Part shown: one piece after another, positions 20,168 through 27,723 of the stretch
Numbering within the stretch: the stretch's first letter is position 1
Layout: each line of letters begins with the position of its first letter
NCBI GenBank assembly: GCA_040218735.1
Contig: JAVJQW010000021.1
Location: 27,629-91,628, forward strand
Direction of reading: 5' to 3'
From: Deltaproteobacteria bacterium
GTDB lineage: Bacteria > Myxococcota > Kuafuiibacteriia > Kuafuiibacteriales > Kuafuiibacteriaceae
Length of the DNA stretch: 64,000 bases
The notes under the pieces: generated by a model
Told to the model about the DNA's origin: nothing
The model's input: only the letters and a program-made list of their open reading frames with translations
Database searches by the model: none
Made by a program: the position numbers and the translations under genes

Positions 20168-21994
20168 TCACTCCGTCGTCACCGGGTTGGCGCCGATGAC
20201 GTAGCCCTGTCCGGCGGTGAGGGCGTCGTTGTCCGGGCTGGCGAACGGGAACATGAGGTTCCCGAGGTCCGGGCAGTTGTCCGGGAACTGCCCGGCGCTG
20301 CACTGCGGCGTGTCGGGGATCATGTCGGGCGCGCCGGACTGCTCGGTGGTGTGGTCGAGCCCGAGGAAGTGGCCGACTTCGTGCGCGAGGATCGTCGCGG
20401 AGATCTCGTTGCCTTGAACGACCTCGCCGTTGGGGCCCATGAACACCTGGCCGAGGTAGGCGCCCTCCATGACGACGCCGGCGCCGCGCACGCCGTGGAG
20501 CGCGGTGACGCCGGGCGCCCCGGGAGACACGCCGATCGCGTTGCTGTCCGGGACGCGGAACTCCTGGACGATGAAGATGTTGAGCGAGAACCGGTCGCCG
20601 AGGTTCGGACCCGGGTTCTGGGTCGTGAGGCCGAGCTGATAGATCTGCTCGAAGTTGCGGATGATGCGGTTCGCCGACGAGACACCCGGCGGTGAATCGA
20701 AGTGCCGAACGGTGGCGAGCGAGATGCCCCCCGTGGCGAAGATCGTCCCGATCTTCGTGAGCATCGCGTTGATGTCCGGGTTGTTCGGCGCGGTCGCCGC
20801 CGAGTAGCCCGCCACACCGGTGTAGTAGATGTTGATGTCGAGCAGGTTCCCCGGCGCGACCTCCGTGAAGAGGTAGTAACAGGCGTCCTGCGAGGCGGTC
20901 TCGATCTCGAGCGTGTAGTCTCCGGCGATCACGCGGTCGGCGTGCAGCGGCGTCAGCGGCACGTGGAGCGGCGCGACGTTGATCAACCGCCGCGCCGTCT
21001 CGGCGTAGCGGAAGTCCGCGCCATCGAGGTCCCAGGTCTGCGGCCCCGTGACCTGTCGCGGGAGGAGGTAACGACCGTCGCGTGCGACCGCGGTGATCGC
21101 GAACGAGGTCGTGTTGGGGGGGAGCGTGAACGGGATCGACAGCGCGCCGTTGGTCGACGCGAGGCCGCACGTCAGGTCGAACGGGTAGGACGCTGGGGCG
21201 TCGAGCGGCGGGGCGTCGGCGTTGTCGGGGATGCAGACGCCGATGCCGGGCGTGAGCAGCACACACGCGTAACCCGCGCGGCAGTCGCTGCGATCGCCAC
21301 ACGTCAGCGTGCACATCGAGCTCAGCGTGACGCCCGGCGTCTCGGCGAGCGGCGGGATGCACTCGGAGCTCGGGCTGTCGTTGCACCCCACGTTCTCGCA
21401 GTTTCGTCGGGTGCAGTAGCCGTCGGGCCAACCCGGGTGCCGCAGGCACAGGCCGCCGCGACACTCGTTGTTCGCCGTGCACGCCGCGCCCGTCGGCCGA
21501 TCGAGCGGCGGAGGTTCTTCGAGATCCGGGACGCAGACGTCCACGCCGTTTTCGGCTTCGACGCAGGCGTAGCCGGCTCGGCAAGTCGGGTTGCAGGCGC
21601 CCGCGCAGAAGCGGAGGTTGTCGAACTGAAGGCAGGCCCCCTCGGGGCGCGTGCACTCGGCGTCGCTCGCGCAGTTGATCTGGGTGCAGTAGCCGCCGGG
21701 GAACTCACCGCGACGCACGCAGTAGCCGCCGGAACACTCGTCGCTTCGGATGCAGGGGTCGCCGTCGATCTTGCCCATCGGAGGAGGAGGCGGCGGCGGA
21801 GGAGGGGGTGGCGGCGGCGGTGGTGGTGTATCCGGGCCGGCGTCGCGCGGCACGATGATCGGCCCACCGTCGCGCGCGGCGACGCCGCCGTCGAACGCGG
21901 TCCTCGGCGGCTGCAGCAGATCTCCGACCGGAGCGGTGTTGTTGCAGGCGACGAGCGCGCCCATCGTGGCGAGCGCCACCGTGATCCTCGACCT
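20168..21994 (-). CDS. Secreted metzincin-type zinc metalloprotease lipoprotein with Cys-rich repeats and a poly-Pro linker
   Basis: HEVGHFLGLDH (HExxHxxGxxH); P19 linker; repeated Cys-rich modules. Probable start at MRSRITVALATMGALVAC. Confidence 0.65.
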   Translation of the reverse strand, partial: RSRITVALATMGALVACNNTAPVGDLLQPPRTAFDGGVAARDGGPIIVPRDAGPDTPPPPPPPPPPPPPPPPMGKIDGDPCIRSDECSGGYCVRRGEFPGGYCTQINCASDAECTRPEGACLQFDNLRFCAGACNPTCRAGYACVEAENGVDVCVPDLEEPPPLDRPTGAACTANNECRGGLCLRHPGWPDGYCTRRNCENVGCNDSPSSECIPPLAETPGVTLSSMCTLTCGDRSDCRAGYACVLLTPGIGVCIPDNADAPPLDAPASYPFDLTCGLASTNGALSIPFTLPPNTTSFAITAVARDGRYLLPRQVTGPQTWDLDGADFRYAETARRLINVAPLHVPLTPLHADRVIAGDYTLEIETASQDACYYLFTEVAPGNLLDINIYYTGVAGYSAATAPNNPDINAMLTKIGTIFATGGISLATVRHFDSPPGVSSANRIIRNFEQIYQLGLTTQNPGPNLGDRFSLNIFIVQEFRVPDSNAIGVSPGAPGVTALHGVRGAGVVMEGAYLGQVFMGPNGEVVQGNEISATILAHEVGHFLGLDHTTEQSGAPDMIPDTPQCSAGQFPDNCPDLGNLMFPFASPDNDALTAGQGYVIGANPVTTE

Positions 21995-22074
21995 CATTGT
22001 CCGTACGTGCTCCCCCGACCCCGCGCACCTATACTGCACGACGCCCTCGGTGGGTGTAGTCTCCACGATACATC

Positions 22075-22905
22075 GTGACGGCCGCCAACCTCGACGATGA
22101 TACGCGCGCCGTGCGCCAGGCGGACGGGCGCTATGCGCTCGAACTCCCCCGATCCTGGAACTTCCTGACGCCATCCGGCGGTGTGCTCCTCGGCGTCGTG
22201 CTCCGCGCGATGGACGACGCGCTCGCCGAGCCGGCGCAGGAGGTGGTCTCTGCGACGGCGATCTTCACTGAGCCGATCCGCGAGGGACCGCTGGTCATCG
22301 ACGTCGACGTGCTGCGTCGTGGGGGCGCGGCCTCGCAGATCGAAGCCACGCTCGCGAACGAGGGGAAGCGGGGCATGAAGGTCGTCGCGACGTTCGCGCG
22401 GGAGCGCGAGGGCGTGGACGTGACGGGGCGCAACATGCCGAGCGTCCCCGCGCCGGACGCTGCGCGCCCCGCGCCGGTGCGCACGGTGTCGCTGCCGTTC
22501 TTCGAGAACTTCGAGGACCGGATCGCGCTCGGCCACCTCTGGCGGGAGCCGGGCTGGGACGCAAACGACGCCGTCTTCGCGCGGTGGATGCGTTACCTCC
22601 AGCCGCCGCGGCACGCCGACGGCTCGCTCCCCGAGTACGCGCTCCCCGGGATGGCCGACTTGATGCCGCCCGCGTTGCTGCAGGCGCTGGGGCCCGACAC
22701 CCCGCGTTTTCACGCGCCCAGCCTGGACCTGACGATGCACTTCTTCGCGCGGCCGCGGACGGAGTGGGTGCTCCTGTACGTGCGCGCGCTCCGGGCGACG
22801 AAGGGCACGGCGTCGTGCAGCGTGGAGCTGTGGGACGAAGAGGGCCGCCTCCTCGCGTACGCCACGCAGGTGATGATGCTGCGTCGCTGGCCTGGTCGAT
22901 CCTGA
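22075..22905 (+). CDS. Acyl-CoA thioesterase II-like (double hot-dog) protein
   Basis: Length and motif pattern of the TesB-like family. Confidence 0.6.
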   Translation: MTAANLDDDTRAVRQADGRYALELPRSWNFLTPSGGVLLGVVLRAMDDALAEPAQEVVSATAIFTEPIREGPLVIDVDVLRRGGAASQIEATLANEGKRGMKVVATFAREREGVDVTGRNMPSVPAPDAARPAPVRTVSLPFFENFEDRIALGHLWREPGWDANDAVFARWMRYLQPPRHADGSLPEYALPGMADLMPPALLQALGPDTPRFHAPSLDLTMHFFARPRTEWVLLYVRALRATKGTASCSVELWDEEGRLLAYATQVMMLRRWPGRS

Positions 22906-22959
22906 GACACCGCTGGGCGTTCCCCTTCAGTTCAGGGCCCCCCGGCCGTTCTTCACGAC

Positions 22960-23559
22960 TTGATGAGGTACTTCATCGGGGCCGTCGTGGCCGTGTCGTT
23001 CGTGGCTTGTGGGGGCGAGATGTCCGCTGAGGATCTCCCCGAGCCGGCTTTCCATCACGTCGAGGCGTTCGCGACCGAGCGCTACCTGCGTGACGATCAG
23101 ATCGTGCAGGGAGCGATGACGTCGGAGCAGAAGGCGCTGGCGAACCAGCTCCTCGGTCTCGACAAGAAACCCGAGCCGGTCGAGCGCGCGCCCGCGCCGA
23201 AGCCGGTGCGTCGTCGTCGCCCCGCGGTGTACGCGGACGCGCAGGACGACTGGGTGGAAGACCTCGAGCCGGAGCCCGGCGTGTTGTCCGACTTCGAGTT
23301 CCAGGACGCGATTCAGGCGTGGACCGGGATGCGTCGGTGCCTCGCCGAGGCGACGAACCGCGGCGGCGAACGAAGCGGCGCGATCCGCGTGTCGTTCAAG
23401 ATCGACGGCACCGGCACGGTGCGGGCGAGCAAGGTCGTGGATACGAGCAACGCAGTCGCGGCTTCGATCGCACCGTGTGTCGAGCGCCGTGCGCGCCGCA
23501 TTCAGTTCCCTGCGTTCGGCGGGGAGACCATGACGAAGGAAGCGAAGTTCGTCTTCTGA
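22960..23559 (+). CDS. Lipoprotein with an AgmX/PglI (TonB-C-like) C-terminal domain
   Basis: Signal/lipobox VSFVACGG. C-terminal domain resembles the ends of 17301-19616 and the TonB-dependent receptor. Confidence 0.5.
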   Translation: MMRYFIGAVVAVSFVACGGEMSAEDLPEPAFHHVEAFATERYLRDDQIVQGAMTSEQKALANQLLGLDKKPEPVERAPAPKPVRRRRPAVYADAQDDWVEDLEPEPGVLSDFEFQDAIQAWTGMRRCLAEATNRGGERSGAIRVSFKIDGTGTVRASKVVDTSNAVAASIAPCVERRARRIQFPAFGGETMTKEAKFVF

Positions 23560-23566
23560 TTTCGCA

Positions 23567-23628
23567 GAAATTGATTCGAAACTACGTCGGAGTTTCGGTG
23601 GAAATAATCCGAGATTTCGAAATCAATT
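23567..23628. promoter_or_regulatory. AT-rich nested palindrome (outer GAAATTGATTCGAAA / TTTCGAAATCAATT, inner CGAAACT-N7-AGTTTCG); terminator or operator candidate
   Basis: Low-GC island 8 nt after the stop of 22960-23559; perfect inner 7-bp stem. Confidence 0.4.
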
Positions 23629-25077
23629 AGACGGGTGCGCCGCGCCCTGGCCGGTCGGCCGGGTGGGGCCCCCGCGCTCTCGCGCTCGTCCAAGAGGGGC
23701 TCCGCGCGGACAGGGGCGTCTGACGGCCTTCGTCGTTCACAGGCCTGAAACACGGGCTGTTAAGTCTGGATCGCCCGCAATGACGATACGTTAGGCGGAC
23801 CGACGCGCCGTCCCTCCACAGGTCACTCACAGGGCGGGGACGATGTACGACCTTCGTCGGCTCACAATCCACGCACCGTTCACCCACAGAATATTCACAG
23901 CCCGGCTCACAGGTTTCGTGGCGAAAAAAGAAAAAAAGCGAAAAAAGATCGCGAAAAGGGGTTGCAAAGGCAGCGGCCCGGTGAGAGTAATCATCGTGCG
24001 TCTGGCGCACGGCAGTGAGGCTGCTGAGCAAAGGAACGCGCAGGGGGCCTAACCCAAATCGAGGACTTCGGTTCGCGAGGAAGGAAGGCCCAAAAGTTTC
24101 GAGCGGGCTGACCCGGGCAGAGATGTCGAGAGGTCAGGGTGGCCGTCGGGAAGACGCTGAAGACGGTCGAAGCGGACCAGCGCGCAAGCGAAGATCCGCA
24201 GAGGCAACGTCATGAGCGGAGCCCCGCAGGGAACTGCAGGGCACGGTGGTGGCTAGCGCCCGGAGGGAACAAAAACCCGAGGAGGGGAGCGAGCTGCGAG
24301 GCGGGTAACACCAAGCCGCAGGCAACGCGACCTCGTGTGGAGCAAAGCCTCGAAGTCGAGGCACGCCCGAGTGGCAGCCGGTTTCGGCCGGTGATCTCGG
24401 ACGCGCTGAACGGCAAGGGGGCAACTCTTCCCGATGAGGGGAGAAAGGCTGCACGGGGGGAGAAGCCCCTGAACGGCAGACAACCCTGTACGTGGCAGTG
24501 GGGTGGAACAAACCCACGAGCCGCACCGCGGAGCAAACCGTCGAGGGGCTGAGAAAGCCCGAGGGCGGAACGTAGCGAGCGCTTGGGATGTGCTCGTAGT
24601 GAGTGGACGCGGAGCGGTCAGGTCGCGAAGAGGGACGAAACCCCAGGTAGGCCAGCTCCTCGCCGAAAGGCAGGGGGCAGGTTCGGAAGCAAAGGTACTC
24701 TGAGGAGGAGGGCCTAGCGAACGAGGTGAAGCTCCGACAAGCGCTTCGGAGCGGACCGTCGGTGGACATACGAAGCCGTCGCGCACGGAAACAGGCGCAG
24801 CGTCTTCGAGTCGTGACGAACCCAATACGTCACACAGCCACCGGCATAGAGCCTCGTCCATGCAGGCCCAACCTCGAGAGAGGCAGACGACTCGACCATG
24901 GCAACGAGTCGTAGGCAGCAACCGAACCTGGAGTCTACGGAGGGGACTGCGCGTTGCTCAGTTGTCGATCGGTCGAGCGTCAGGCGCTCCTTTTGTTTCT
25001 GCGCTCCCCCGTTCTAGTCTCGGGGTCGATGGCGCCACCCCCCACAACCGAGTGCTCGCGCTGAGGGCCATGCGTTC

Positions 25078-27723
25078 GTGGATCGTGTCCTCGAAGGGCT
25101 CGCACGCCTCGTCACGCGCTACCCGCAGCGCGTCGTCCTCGTCCTCGCGATCCTGACGCTCCCCGTCGCGTTCGTCGCCTCGTCCCTTCAGGTCTCGACG
25201 TCGCGCACCGCGCTCGTCAGCGAGGACGAGCCGCACTGGAAGCGCTACATGGCGTTCGCCCGGGAGTTCGGCATCCCGGAGGACCTGGTGCTGGTCGCCA
25301 AGTCGGACGACCCGGCCGCCATCCACGCCTTCCTCGACGACGTCGCCGGTCAGCTCGGCGGTGACGAACGTGTCGCCGCCGTCTTCCACCGCGTGGACCT
25401 CGCCGCCCTCGAAGCGCGCGCCCCGCTGTTCCTCGACGAAGCCGCGCTCGCGCAGGTCGCGGCGGTCGCCGACCGCCCCGCGCTCGGTGCGCTGTGGAAG
25501 GCGCAGGGTCCGGGGCCTCGGCTCACCGCGCTGGCCGATCTGCTCGAGACGGTGCCCGAGGTGGTCGGACCGTCGGTCACGGAGGCCGACACGGCGCTGC
25601 TCGCTCGGATGCTGGAGGGCCTCACCCTGGAGCTCGCGCGGTTTTCGGAGGGGGGCGCGGCGCCGATGCGTCCGCCGATCGATCCGGCCGCGGTCGCCGA
25701 TGGGCGGGCCCGGGGCATCGACGAGCAGGGGTATTTGAGCGCGCGAAACGGGCGAATCGGGATCATGTTCGTACGCCCGACGTACACCCGCGACGAAATC
25801 GAAGTCGTCGAACCGTTCGTGCAGGCGGTACGCGATGCAGGACAGCTTGCAGCCTCGCGGAACGCGGGGGTGTGGTTCGGGCTCACCGGGATCCCGGCGT
25901 CGCAGATCGACGAGCTGCACACCATCGCGAAGGACACCCTCCTCACGACCGCCGTCGCGCTCGTCGGCGTGGTGCTGTTGTTCCTGCTCTACTTCCCCGC
26001 GTTCCGTCTGCTCGGCTTTGCGCTGATCCCCGTCGGGTTCGGAGTGGTGTGGACGGCGGCGGCGATACGCCTGTCGTTTGGCTACGTGAACCTGATGTCG
26101 TCGATCTTCCTCGTGGTCCTGATCGGGATGGGGATCGACTTCTCGGTACACATCGTCTCGCGGTTCCTCGAAGAGCGCCGACGCGGCGCGTCCCCCGCCG
26201 AGGCCGCGGAGCGCTCCGTCGCACGCGCGGGGCGCGGCGTCGTCACGGGCGCGACGACCTCCGCCGGAGCCTTCCTCGCGGTGGGCTGGTCCGGGTTCCG
26301 CGGCATCGAGGAGCTCGGCATCGCCGCCTCGGTCGGGCTGATCCTCACGCTCGTCTTCGCGGTCACCGCGCTGCCGGCGGTGCTCGCGTGGGGCGGCGAG
26401 GGCATCGACGTCACCAAACGCCGCCGCCTCTCCGTCGCGCCGCTCGTCGACCGAGTGTTGGAGCGGAGCGGGTGGGTCGTCGTCACGGCGGGGATCGTCA
26501 CGCTGCCCTGCCTGATGTGGGCGAGCCGCACCCCGTTCGACTTCAGCCTCCTGAACATGCTCCCGAAGGACGCCGAGAGCGCCCTGTTGATGGCGGAGAT
26601 GATCGAGGAGCGCGACCTCTCGGCGGACGCGGTCGCGCTCGTGACGAGCGACTTGGAGTCGGCGCGGGAGGTCGAGGGCCGGCTCCGGTCGCTCGACACC
26701 GTGTACAGCGTCGTCAGCGCCGCGACGTTCATCCCGCCGAACCAACCCTCGAAGCTGGCTCGCCTGCGGACGATCACCGCCACCCTCGCGGCGACGCGCG
26801 CCGCAGCCACCGCTCCGGAGGGCAATGTGGAGGACGCGCTCGATCGGTTGGAGTCGGTGCTCGAACACTTCTCGGAGCTCGCGTTCGCGCGTGATCACAA
26901 GGACGCGGTGAACCGCCTCGGCGCGAGCCTCGACGCGCTCGACCGCGTTCGTTCGCGCCTCGACGCGGCGCCCGAGGCGACGAAGCAGCACCTCGACGCA
27001 TTCGACGCCGAGGTCGCGCGGCTCCTCACGCGCGCAGGCGAGCAGCTCGAGACGACGCTCCGCGCCGGGCCGCTCACGAGCGCCGACCTCCCCGAGGACC
27101 TGCGCGCACGCTTCGTCAGCGACCAGGGGCGCTACGCGGTGTACGCCGTTCCGAAGGCGAGCATCTGGGATCGGCCCGCGCTCGGGCGGTTCCTCGAAGA
27201 GGTGCGCGCGATCGACGCCGATGCGACCGGGTTCCCGGAGACGTTCTACGAAAACGCCGAGCGCATCCGGCAAGGTTTCTTGCGCGCGGCGCTGTACGCC
27301 GCGATCGCCGTGGTGTTGCTGCTCGGGCTCGACCTCTCGAAACCTTCGCACGTGGCCTCCGCGATGATCCCCGTCGGCCTCGGCGCGGTGTGGATGCTCG
27401 GCGCGATGCACCTGATCGATCTGCCGTACAACCTCGCGAACATCGTCGGGTTGCCGTTGGTGATCGGCGTGGGGATCGACAACGGCGTGCACATCCTCCA
27501 CCGCTTCCGGGAATCGGAGAGTGTGCGGCTCGCCGCCGTCGAGACCGGGAGCGCCGTCGTGTTGTCTTCGCTGACCACGATGGTCGGATTCGGCTCGCTC
27601 GCGCTCGCTTCACACCGCGGCTACTCGAGCCTGGGGCAGATCCTCTTCATCGGCGTGGGCGCGTGTCTCGTCGCGACGCTCACCGTGTTGCTCGCGACGC
27701 TCGCACCGAAGAGGCGACGATGA
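25078..27723 (+). CDS. MMPL/RND-superfamily exporter (HpnN-like)
   Basis: Two 6-TM bundles, each followed by a large periplasmic loop; 881 aa. Confidence 0.85.
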   Translation: MDRVLEGLARLVTRYPQRVVLVLAILTLPVAFVASSLQVSTSRTALVSEDEPHWKRYMAFAREFGIPEDLVLVAKSDDPAAIHAFLDDVAGQLGGDERVAAVFHRVDLAALEARAPLFLDEAALAQVAAVADRPALGALWKAQGPGPRLTALADLLETVPEVVGPSVTEADTALLARMLEGLTLELARFSEGGAAPMRPPIDPAAVADGRARGIDEQGYLSARNGRIGIMFVRPTYTRDEIEVVEPFVQAVRDAGQLAASRNAGVWFGLTGIPASQIDELHTIAKDTLLTTAVALVGVVLLFLLYFPAFRLLGFALIPVGFGVVWTAAAIRLSFGYVNLMSSIFLVVLIGMGIDFSVHIVSRFLEERRRGASPAEAAERSVARAGRGVVTGATTSAGAFLAVGWSGFRGIEELGIAASVGLILTLVFAVTALPAVLAWGGEGIDVTKRRRLSVAPLVDRVLERSGWVVVTAGIVTLPCLMWASRTPFDFSLLNMLPKDAESALLMAEMIEERDLSADAVALVTSDLESAREVEGRLRSLDTVYSVVSAATFIPPNQPSKLARLRTITATLAATRAAATAPEGNVEDALDRLESVLEHFSELAFARDHKDAVNRLGASLDALDRVRSRLDAAPEATKQHLDAFDAEVARLLTRAGEQLETTLRAGPLTSADLPEDLRARFVSDQGRYAVYAVPKASIWDRPALGRFLEEVRAIDADATGFPETFYENAERIRQGFLRAALYAAIAVVLLLGLDLSKPSHVASAMIPVGLGAVWMLGAMHLIDLPYNLANIVGLPLVIGVGIDNGVHILHRFRESESVRLAAVETGSAVVLSSLTTMVGFGSLALASHRGYSSLGQILFIGVGACLVATLTVLLATLAPKRRR

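Follow-up and report, generated by a model that had tools for sequence, protein, structure and literature searches.

What is encoded by the 1.45 kb that separate a lipoprotein gene (22960-23559) from an MMPL (HpnN-like) exporter gene (25078-27723) in a myxococcotal genome? The locus lies in a 64,000-nucleotide (nt) stretch of Deltaproteobacteria bacterium DNA (GenBank assembly GCA_040218735.1, contig JAVJQW010000021.1, positions 27,629 to 91,628; phylum Myxococcota) that we call the window, whose own numbering is used throughout; a sequence-only reading of it had described the island at 23640-25077 as a transcribed structured RNA or a long 5' leader upstream of the transporter. We find that positions ~23997-24990 of the + strand form a conserved, structured and non-coding RNA family that is not specific to MMPL genes, and we consider it likely that a large structured RNA of an uncatalogued family is encoded here by an independent, regulated gene, which makes up the island together with its control region. 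The first of the two alternatives is thus strongly supported, by conservation, covariation, a predicted promoter and terminator of its own, and apparently RNA-derived contigs with defined ends, and the leader alternative is not. What had been taken for a single 1.45-kb island is composite, with regulatory DNA at 23640-23995 and the RNA only at ~23997-24990.

Related loci were fetched with the MMPL protein as query against genomes and public assemblies (L numbers denote these loci); the genome matches are metagenome-assembled genomes (MAGs) labelled Myxococcales, Myxococcota or Deltaproteobacteria, and the window sequence recurs unchanged in Logan contigs of SRR26209547 and related runs. A homologous non-coding region sits between the lipoprotein and MMPL genes in six loci (the window, L006, L011, L012, L015 and, in part, L013), whose MMPL proteins are 82% to 55% identical to that of the window; nhmmer finds the RNA in L006 with E = 1.7e-63, as well as in L011, L012, L013 and L015. 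Nucleotide identity to L011 and L012 is higher in the RNA (87.6% and 82.7%) than in the MMPL gene (80.2% and 68.9%), and the lipoprotein gene, at 72.5%, also falls below the RNA. The six sequences share two invariant blocks (CGGAACGTAGCG, N20-30, GTGGACGC), and a scan of JGI metagenome contigs for this pair returned 81 stretches, 57 of which proved by iterated profile searches to be true homologues, many of them nearly full length; 23 pattern matches had unrelated flanks and no homology to the RNA and were set aside as chance. By nhmmer, homologues are present in 63 fetched loci, 57 of them metagenome contigs. Thirty representatives are 49-86% identical to the window RNA, and a lower-GC, more divergent subgroup was also found. 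Judging from these matches, the RNA has relatives in many bacteria of soils, sediments and the sea, its range extending from Myxococcota MAGs to numerous metagenomic lineages.

The + strand of the conserved region has a predicted fold of -475.9 kcal/mol (z = -6.45), compared with -406.5 kcal/mol (z = -3.25) for the - strand, and RNAalifold on five full-length sequences yields 286 pairs, 74 of them changed on both sides. Covariation across a MAFFT-based alignment of 30 representatives less than 95% identical to each other bears out the structured RNA: the consensus comprises 229 pairs in 47 helices, and 159 of the 229 carry changes on both sides. Paired cells amount to 88.3%, compared with 73.3% after shuffling (0/500 reach the observed value) and 40-43% when the partner is slid by 1-3 columns, and the covariation score is 0.441 as observed, 0.192 shuffled and 0.09-0.13 with the partner slid. 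A mutual-information scan for pseudoknots returned only isolated pairs outside the nested structure and no stacked helix. The model places five domains, A to E, around a central junction enclosed by a long terminal stem (23997-24043 / 24947-24988), with the following parts.

23997-24990, + strand: RNA gene of ~1 kb, with a primary transcript predicted from ~23997 to the U-tract at 24990-24999
23997-24043, + strand: 5' strand of the terminal stem, including P1 at 23997/8-24008 (GCGUCUGGCGC)
24024-24031, + strand: middle segment of the 5' strand (CUGAGCAA)
24037-24043, + strand: P2 of the 5' strand (CGCGCAG)
24045-24091, + strand: domain A, a hairpin with a UUCG loop and variable sequence
24097-24270, + strand: domain B, branched, the most variable domain (consensus helices 2-13)
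24277-24476, + strand: domain C (consensus helices 14-23), closed by CCG/CGG and the invariant AGGGG/CCCCU
24484-24634, + strand: domain D, the most conserved part, a three-way junction (consensus helices 24-31)
24641-24945, + strand: domain E, large and branched (consensus helices 32-47)
24947-24988, + strand: 3' strand of the terminal stem, including P2 at 24947-24953 (CUGCGCG)
24954-24961, + strand: middle segment of the 3' strand (UUGCUCAG)
24977-24987, + strand: P1 of the 3' strand (GCGUCAGGCGC)

The terminal stem (duplex dG in the window, -59.9 kcal/mol) is present in all lineages checked, built from differing sequences: CUGAGCAA/UUGCUCAG of the window corresponds to GGUCGAAC/GUUCGACC in L006, CGCGCAG/CUGCGCG alternates with UGCGUAG/CUACGCG between lineages, and in L048, L053 and the L089 group the paired strands are unrelated ones. 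The closing helices of domain C are paired in 95-99% of cells. The junction strands of domain D are near-invariant in the 30 representatives (GGAG-nAAA from 24530, AACGUA at 24569-74 and GAGUGGA at 24600-06), and domain E has conserved GAAA tetraloops (CCGAAAGG at 24663-70 and GGAAAC at 24787-92) and an internal loop, CUCU-GAG-GAGG / CCUC-GAG-AGAG. Domain B of L098 contains an insertion of ~400 nt.

Most of the recurrent motifs that the sequence-only reading had listed find their place in this structure, at slightly different positions. The GGAGCAAA(G/C)CnTCGA motif is present twice, at 24339 and 24530 rather than 24338 and 24518; CTGAACGGCA also occurs twice, at 24406 and 24469 (given as 24407 and 24470), as does GTGGCAG, at 24371 and 24492 (given as 24369 and 24491). 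The first two are absent elsewhere in the window. The GGAGCAAA module is kept in the homologues and, as GGAGCAAA-SCnUCGARG, is a structural module conserved family-wide, with one copy in domain C (GGAGCAAAGCCUCGAAG, 24339-24353), which also holds the motifs CTGAACGGCA and GTGGCAG, and one in domain D (GGAGCAAACCGUCGAGG); the recurring GUGGC and AACGG are conserved core segments too. A search for tandem and dispersed repeats found short motif recurrences only and no repeat element.

The RNA is flanked by what appear to be control elements of its own, listed here with a candidate promoter of the downstream gene.

23738-23912, + strand: direct-repeat array of CACAG, unit ~YYCACAGGYC, with copies at 23738, 23817, 23828, 23885, 23896 and 23908 spaced 11-12 nt within clusters
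23921-23961, + strand: A-rich tract, UP-element-like, directly upstream of the -35 element
23962-23991, + strand: sigma70-like promoter, predicted start ~23996-23998
23962-23967, + strand: -35 element TTGCAA
23980-23983, + strand: conserved GGTG with the TG of an extended -10
23985-23991, + strand: -10-like GAGTAAT
24975-24999, + strand: terminator-like element, hairpin GAGCG-UCAGG-CGCUC followed by CUUUUGUUUC
24993-25020, + strand: possible MMPL promoter, TTGTTT (24993-98), N16, TAGTCT (25015-20), overlapping the terminator tail

The six CACAG copies fall within 330 nt on one strand, at a background of 0.00045 per nt (Poisson p ~1e-8), with spacings of 11, 11 and 12 nt and the proximal copy ~86 nt upstream of the RNA start. 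TCACAG, earlier counted five times, does recur, in four copies (23737, 23827, 23895 and 23907); these repeats and the A-rich stretch, confirmed at 23921-23961, had been described along with the presumed RNA and sit instead in the promoter region. Phased same-strand CACAG repeats are found at -77 to -91 in L011, L012, L015, L062, L094, L027, L083, L078 and L048, and the RNAs of relatives with such arrays are 50-57% identical to that of the window. Across lineages the repeats are always on the strand of the RNA and 10-12 nt apart or multiples thereof; in L083 there are six copies at spacings of 11, 10, 11, 11 and 12 nt. Tandem direct repeats at 10-11 bp phasing, as in OmpR/PhoB-type arrays, thus occur in both the window and L083, and we presume that they are putative binding sites for a transcription activator.

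Winged-helix response regulators characteristically bind phased direct repeats. Like the optimal PhoR site of C. glutamicum, CCTGTGAAaatCCTGTGAA (PMC3353115), the array consists of same-orientation direct repeats phased at 11 bp, and the reverse complement of the window units, CCTGTGAG-ccg-GGCTGTGAA (23894-23913), matches that site at 14/16 positions. The CACAG sites nevertheless differ from PhoB/OmpR sites in lying 77-260 nt upstream, not over the -35, and in running opposite to the usual direction of Pho boxes, and they also accompany sigma54 promoters, which need another activator class; the resemblance serves as a lead only. Directly upstream of the six-unit array and the RNA in L083 is a response-regulator gene (1874-2230, - strand) with a receiver domain and a Fis-type helix-turn-helix and, in its visible part, no AAA+ domain; it was rejected as the CACAG binder, having no homologue in the window or the other loci. 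No other phased + strand CACAG clusters occur in the window, and a search there for further arrays that might hint at a regulon found only one pair at the edge: CTGTG at 251 and 263 (251-267, - strand), 12 nt apart and facing a gene beyond the edge, which may be another target of the CACAG regulator.

The positions of the promoter elements are kept in L011, L012, L006, L015, L048 and L061 (TTGC/T, N13-14, GGTG, N3, nAnnAAT, with varying spacer), with -35-like variants TTGCAA, TTGCGA and TTGTGC and -10-like nAnnAA(T), and the arrangement TTGCAA, N17, (TG)nGAGTAA(T) is conserved in position, with variable spacer, in seven sequences. They would therefore place the start at ~23996-23998, just ahead of the stem. 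The A-rich tract probably acts like an UP element, and A/T-rich sequence occupies the same place in relatives (TTTTTTCGGAAAAAG in L006/L015). Other lineages carry at the equivalent place a canonical sigma54 promoter, TGGCAC-N5-TTGCT with variable N5 (L053, ~108-123; L062, L063, L027, L086, L090, L094 and L100) or, in L025, the sigma54-type TGGCACgccacTCGCA; the general sigma54 pattern is TGGCAC-N5-TTGCW ~12 nt upstream of a start. We looked for the motif in the window and rejected a sigma54 promoter there, the motif being absent. The sole upstream feature common to both promoter types is the CACAG array.

At the other end, a hairpin at 24975-24989 is followed by CTTTTGTTTC and overlaps the 3' strand of P1. 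With its G+C-rich stem and U-tract at the 3' end, it is a predicted intrinsic terminator; the hairpin covaries (ACGCCC-GUC-GGGCGU in L006/L015), and a U-tract follows the 3' strand of P1 in six lineages (the window clade, the L006 clade, L079, L048, the L053 clade and L025). Two pairings are available to the 3' strand of P1, the long-range stem and the local hairpin; in L048 and L053 it is the long-range stem itself that precedes the U-tract. No ligand-dependent switch is evident. Because the U-tract in L048 and L053 comes without a good local hairpin, the long-range stem may take over as terminator stem. The window, L011 and L012 have in common a block, CCCGTTCTAGTCT, that lies after the RNA terminator and before the MMPL start codon; together with TTGTTT 16 nt upstream (TTGTTT-N16-TAGTCT), it may be the MMPL gene's own promoter.

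Evidence for a transcript comes from relatives in public assemblies. An ENA contig (L067), at least 95% identical to the L012 RNA, contains a 976-nt insert with Illumina adapters at both ends (1-47 and 1024-1068); the insert ends correspond to window positions 24010 and 24982, and the adapters are oriented as a dUTP-stranded library would show them for a + strand RNA. Because the untrimmed adapters stand at both ends, we read it as a single full-length library insert of the RNA, and because adapters assemble only where many fragments share an end, its ends are probably the physical ends of an abundant molecule. Furthermore, the 3' strand of the stem is where 21-22 contigs, drawn from many samples and lineages, stop, 3-36 nt past the profile end, and only three end comparably near the RNA 5' end. 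A common 5' start (CGGUUGGCAA...), to within 2-3 nt, is seen in seven contigs of different samples that measure 1,033-1,055 nt and whose two termini are complementary.

One lineage has a variant RNA of ~2.05 kb (L050, 1-1135; L032, L035, L041, L046, L054, L058, L071 and L093), seen in nine samples as nine contigs that measure 2,027-2,067 nt and have both ends in common; its extra 1.1-kb region lies inside the terminal stem, ahead of the conserved core, and forms long UUCG-capped hairpins (fold z = -6.5). In L084 (709-1502) the RNA is fused to 23S ribosomal RNA (rRNA) from model position ~110. A link to 23S rRNA through this contig was considered and rejected: the rRNA alignment is reliable only from ~110 and abuts the 3' part of the RNA, so we read the contig as an assembly chimera, probably of two abundant RNAs. 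In L101 (980-1179) the 3' end of the RNA is joined to its 5' end by ~17 nt, a loop capping P2, which could reflect a circularised RNA, a tandem copy or concatemer, a circular permutation or an assembly artefact; permutation was set aside, the relative L098 lacking the junction.

Taken together, the locus shows what is expected of a large, stable, trans-acting non-coding RNA: a predicted promoter and terminator of its own, conserved structure, variable genomic context and a discrete transcript, the last coming from relatives. We suggest that transcription would begin at ~23997 from the sigma70-like promoter, aided by the A-rich tract (and from sigma54 promoters in other lineages), under the control of an activator bound to the phased CACAG repeats, and would stop at the U-tract after the 3' strand of the terminal stem, so that stem formation would both seal the RNA and end the transcript; the ends might then be trimmed within the stem.

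Several observations weigh against an independent RNA gene or limit how far it can be pressed. Kinship alone can beat shuffles in a MAFFT alignment without any structure, though the slid-partner control argues otherwise, and the invariance of CGGAACGUAGCG/GUGGACGC among the metagenome matches is partly an artefact, because the search pattern fixed both blocks. A strict sigma70 scan called 0 sites in this region of the window, so the sigma70-like promoter is tentative and its start site only predicted. That the contigs are RNA-derived, and the transcript hence discrete, we infer from the ends, the adapters and the 23S chimera in relatives, and a junction at 24010 would cost P1 its 5' strand, unless reverse transcriptase halted at the stem there. 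Only 34-89 nt separate the RNA from the MMPL gene, and read-through into the latter is possible in the window clade. Finally, the homologues are mostly metagenome contigs, and the scaffold function considered below is drawn by analogy.

To place the RNA among known ones we used Rfam 15, whose 4,227 families include OLE, GOLLD, ROOL, raiA, HEARO, RNase P, tmRNA, 6S, group I and II introns and the rRNAs. The region 22500-26000 has no match at E <= 1 and the whole window none at the gathering score, in line with an uncatalogued RNA. The same models on 40 related loci return only a tRNA and the chimeric 23S fragment, both outside the RNA, and a tRNA/tmRNA scan of the window finds none. The open-access literature, where the CCTGTGAA motif was also looked up, yielded no description of such an RNA. 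With neither an Rfam 15 match nor an open-access description, the RNA is therefore a candidate new class, newness here meaning no homology to catalogued families, "large ornate non-coding RNA of unknown function" being already a descriptive category. On balance we lean towards seeing in it the first member of a class of giant ornate RNAs not described before, ~1 kb long (~2 kb in one lineage), widespread, abundant as transcripts, terminated by their own stem, switched on by a dedicated regulator through CACAG repeats at sigma70 or sigma54 promoters, and having a new biochemical role; such an RNA would act as a ribozyme, assemble from RNA alone or form the core of a ribonucleoprotein (RNP) not yet known. 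Besides the rRNAs, we know of only a handful of bacterial RNAs longer than 500 nt, chiefly OLE, GOLLD, ROOL and the group II introns, RNase P being smaller. If our reading is true, the RNA would be among the largest bacterial non-ribosomal RNAs found so far, and each of the earlier large RNAs started a field of study, be it RNA catalysis, RNA-only assemblies or membrane RNPs. Conserved over 1 kb, with ~230 covariation-supported pairs, near-invariant junctions, predicted regulated promoters and no conserved protein neighbour, it would be a new member far from all catalogued families; its sequence, ends, structure model and dozens of homologues are ready for cryo-electron microscopy, pull-downs and genetics, and the conserved CACAG array offers a handle for finding the regulator and the inducing signal.

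What such an RNA does can be approached through its likenesses. A tentative proposal, to which we give somewhat less than even weight, is that it acts in trans as a stable scaffold, either as an RNP subunit or as an RNA-only assembly, by analogy with OLE, raiA, ROOL and GOLLD. Its binding core, for a partner or a ligand, would be the near-invariant three-way junction of domain D; synthesis would be induced as needed by a nutrient or stress signal through the CACAG-binding regulator, and the RNA would not regulate the neighbouring MMPL gene in cis. OLE RNA (~600 nt, Bacillota) is likewise a large, ornate, stand-alone non-coding RNA with highly conserved junction nucleotides, and is a stress-related RNP scaffold whose biochemical role is still unsettled (PMC9723947, PMC12054373). 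Unlike OLE, the window RNA has no Rfam match, belongs to high-GC Myxococcota and uncultured lineages, is ~1.6 times longer and has a long terminal stem that doubles as a putative terminator; no OLE-type conserved partner gene stands out, because no neighbour recurs across lineages in the fetched loci. GOLLD and ROOL are 0.6-0.8 kb bacterial non-coding RNAs with elaborate multi-domain folds, also found through metagenomes, and they form RNA-only homo-oligomers (PMC12286853), a possible model for a 1-kb RNA without a conserved neighbour. In contrast to them, the window RNA has no Rfam match, no matches among phage records or viral contigs and no adjacent tRNAs, and its gene is chromosomal with a predicted regulated promoter. 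6S and Ms1 are abundant, stable, trans-acting RNAs whose ends are paired in a closing stem and which accumulate in particular growth states. The raiA-motif RNA is described in similar terms: abundant, stable and trans-acting, with paired ends and growth-state accumulation (PMC11706538, PMC12968392). The window RNA shares the pairing of 5' and 3' ends in a closing stem with all three, which are, however, simple RNAs of 180-300 nt; it matches none of their models and has no 6S-type central bubble.

The junction nucleotides of domains C and D could alternatively form the active site of a ribozyme or of the catalytic subunit of an enzyme, since size, a multi-domain central junction, near-invariant unpaired strands and GNRA tetraloops are typical of large ribozymes, and ends defined inside the terminal stem possibly point to processing. 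The general layout, with paired ends closing a wheel of domains, recalls 23S rRNA or group II introns. Processing of rRNA precursors by RNase III leaves ends inside a long stem, and the paired ends, long stem, central junction and radiating domains of the window RNA, like the L067 ends inside the stem, resemble 23S rRNA; the large- and small-subunit rRNA models, however, have no match on the RNA, and no genomic locus lies in an rRNA operon. Group II introns are marked by 5' GUGYG, 3' AY, a domain V hairpin with the AGC triad and, usually, an open reading frame (ORF) for a reverse transcriptase. Here the Intron_gpII and group-II-D1D4 models have no match, no reverse-transcriptase ORF is found, and GUGCG at the RNA start is confined to the window clade, with UUGCG, CUGCG or AUGCG elsewhere. 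Rfam likewise reports no similarity to RNase P, group I introns or self-cleaving classes, no substrate or splice-site signature was seen, and termination with nuclease trimming explains the ends equally well, so that we think catalysis unlikely.

Slightly less probable in our estimate is a protein-sequestering RNA like 6S, Ms1 or CsrB, which would titrate a global regulator, RNA polymerase or the 30S subunit in starvation. The strong purine bias, the recurrent GGAG/GGAGG-like motifs, promoters that look inducible (including sigma54 in some lineages) and the apparent abundance in RNA-derived assemblies would all suit such a role. Sponge RNAs are repetitive and poorly conserved outside short motifs, whereas the fold here is unique and non-repetitive, with long-range helices and conserved junctions; it lacks a 6S-like central bubble, and its GGAGG motifs vary across the family.

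Returning to the independent gene, the neighbourhood of the RNA bears directly on the 5' leader that the sequence-only reading had offered as its other alternative. In the six syntenic loci, which have MMPL proteins 55-82% identical, the RNA is on the MMPL strand and 34-89 nt upstream of the MMPL gene, and a terminator-like hairpin stands between the two; like a riboswitch or long leader, the RNA is non-coding and structured, precedes a transporter gene on the same strand and has a terminator-like element after it. A giant riboswitch or attenuator could thus act in cis on the exporter, with the terminator gating read-through, all the more plausibly as the lipoprotein, MMPL and tetratricopeptide-repeat (TPR) genes look like one operon in RNA-free relatives. 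The RNA lies beside an MMPL gene, however, only in the window clade and the L006/L015 clade, so that its placement upstream of a transporter does not hold generally. Elsewhere its neighbours are serA (divergent) with a 627-aa secreted protein or a cupin-like protein; a cyclophilin and a response regulator; HtrA-like protease, YggL and STAS genes at one end of the RNA and an RnfC-like/BMC gene at the opposite end; or a lipoprotein gene. Most family members have unrelated or opposite-strand downstream genes, the RNA is absent from MMPL orthologues of similar divergence, and the RNA-derived contigs stop at the terminal stem and do not run into the coding region. Compared with riboswitches, moreover, the downstream gene is not conserved and the RNA is 5-10 times larger than aptamers and discrete, with paired ends; no alternative anti-terminator pairing was seen, and the conserved block between terminator and MMPL gene looks like a separate promoter. 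We consider a cis-acting leader very unlikely. The varying neighbours, the single copy per locus (the window included) and the lack of matches in phage and plasmid collections therefore speak for an autonomous gene.

Those collections also bear on a mobile or selfish element, such as a group II intron lacking an ORF, the RNA of a retroelement or one carried by phages in the manner of GOLLD or ROOL, which the patchy presence among close MMPL loci, the central wheel of domains and the 3'-5' join in L101 might suggest. A search of phage, plasmid and viral-contig collections with the RNA gave 0 matches, no group II model matches, and no reverse transcriptase, integrase or terminal-repeat signature lies nearby; with a single copy per locus and synteny stable across MMPL proteins 55-82% identical, we find this hardly credible.

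The patchy presence is seen in the MMPL orthologues L014 and L016-L020, where the RNA is absent. In five of these loci its slot is filled by a protein of 150-175 aa without a Pfam match (MARPTRTLIDAL...YSWTHMGSCNCGHL...), at the following positions.

L014, 3391-3888: slot-protein gene
L017, 3449-3964: slot-protein gene
L018, 3459-3977: slot-protein gene
L019, 3449-3973: slot-protein gene
L020, 3526-3978: slot-protein gene

L016 has neither protein nor RNA in the slot, and the RNA gene and the protein gene appear to be mutually exclusive. The sequence-only reading had held that an intact protein gene here in homologous loci would make the island a decayed pseudogene. Such a gene does stand in these five loci, and the pseudogene reading fails nonetheless, because the RNA is conserved elsewhere and the slot protein shows no similarity to the window DNA (tblastn E > 0.1); the island is thus not a decayed remnant of that protein.

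Composition and codon statistics agree. The ORFs in 23560-25077 are all of low complexity, Arg/Lys/Glu-rich on the + strand and Pro/Ser-rich on the - strand, which bears out the earlier statement that neither strand holds a protein-like ORF. The G+A-rich + strand and reduced GC noted before are likewise confirmed: at 61.2% purine on the + strand (1-kb window mean 50.5%, standard deviation 2.9), 23996-24990 is the most purine-skewed kilobase of the 64 kb, its GC is 64.5% against a mean of 68.8% in 1-kb windows, and 23560-25077 contains the lowest-GC kilobase. Substitutions in the RNA region by position modulo 3 number 40/45/39 and 58/62/52 (window against L011 and L012), with 10 and 16 frame-breaking indels, respectively, many of them of 1-2 nt; the adjacent MMPL gene gives 53/26/118 by codon position with gaps in-frame only, and both it and the lipoprotein gene show strong third-position bias and only in-frame gaps. 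Chi-square tests of codon periodicity give p 0.64-0.78 for the RNA region when the window is set beside L011 and L012 and p 0.09 for the L006-L015 pair, compared with p = 1e-9 to 1e-15 for the MMPL gene. A decayed protein gene or unrecognised coding region, hinted at by the intact gene in the slot of related loci and by gene-caller ORFs in L009 and L015, can be dismissed, given the failed tblastn search, the lack of codon periodicity, the frame-breaking indels, the low-complexity translations and a nucleotide conservation of the RNA that exceeds that of the flanking genes and tracks base pairing.

The RNA gene in turn accounts for spurious "hypothetical protein" calls in MAGs, such as a 69-aa product at 23843-24052 (+ strand) of the window and one of 243 aa at 3091-3822 (- strand) of L015; a gene-caller ORF was also placed on the RNA region in L009 (8766-8975). 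Further upstream in the window, a 668-aa ORF (20168-22174, - strand) with a run of 17 prolines, a zinc-metalloprotease-like motif (HEVGHFLGLDH) and Cys-rich repeats appears to encode a secreted, protease-like protein.

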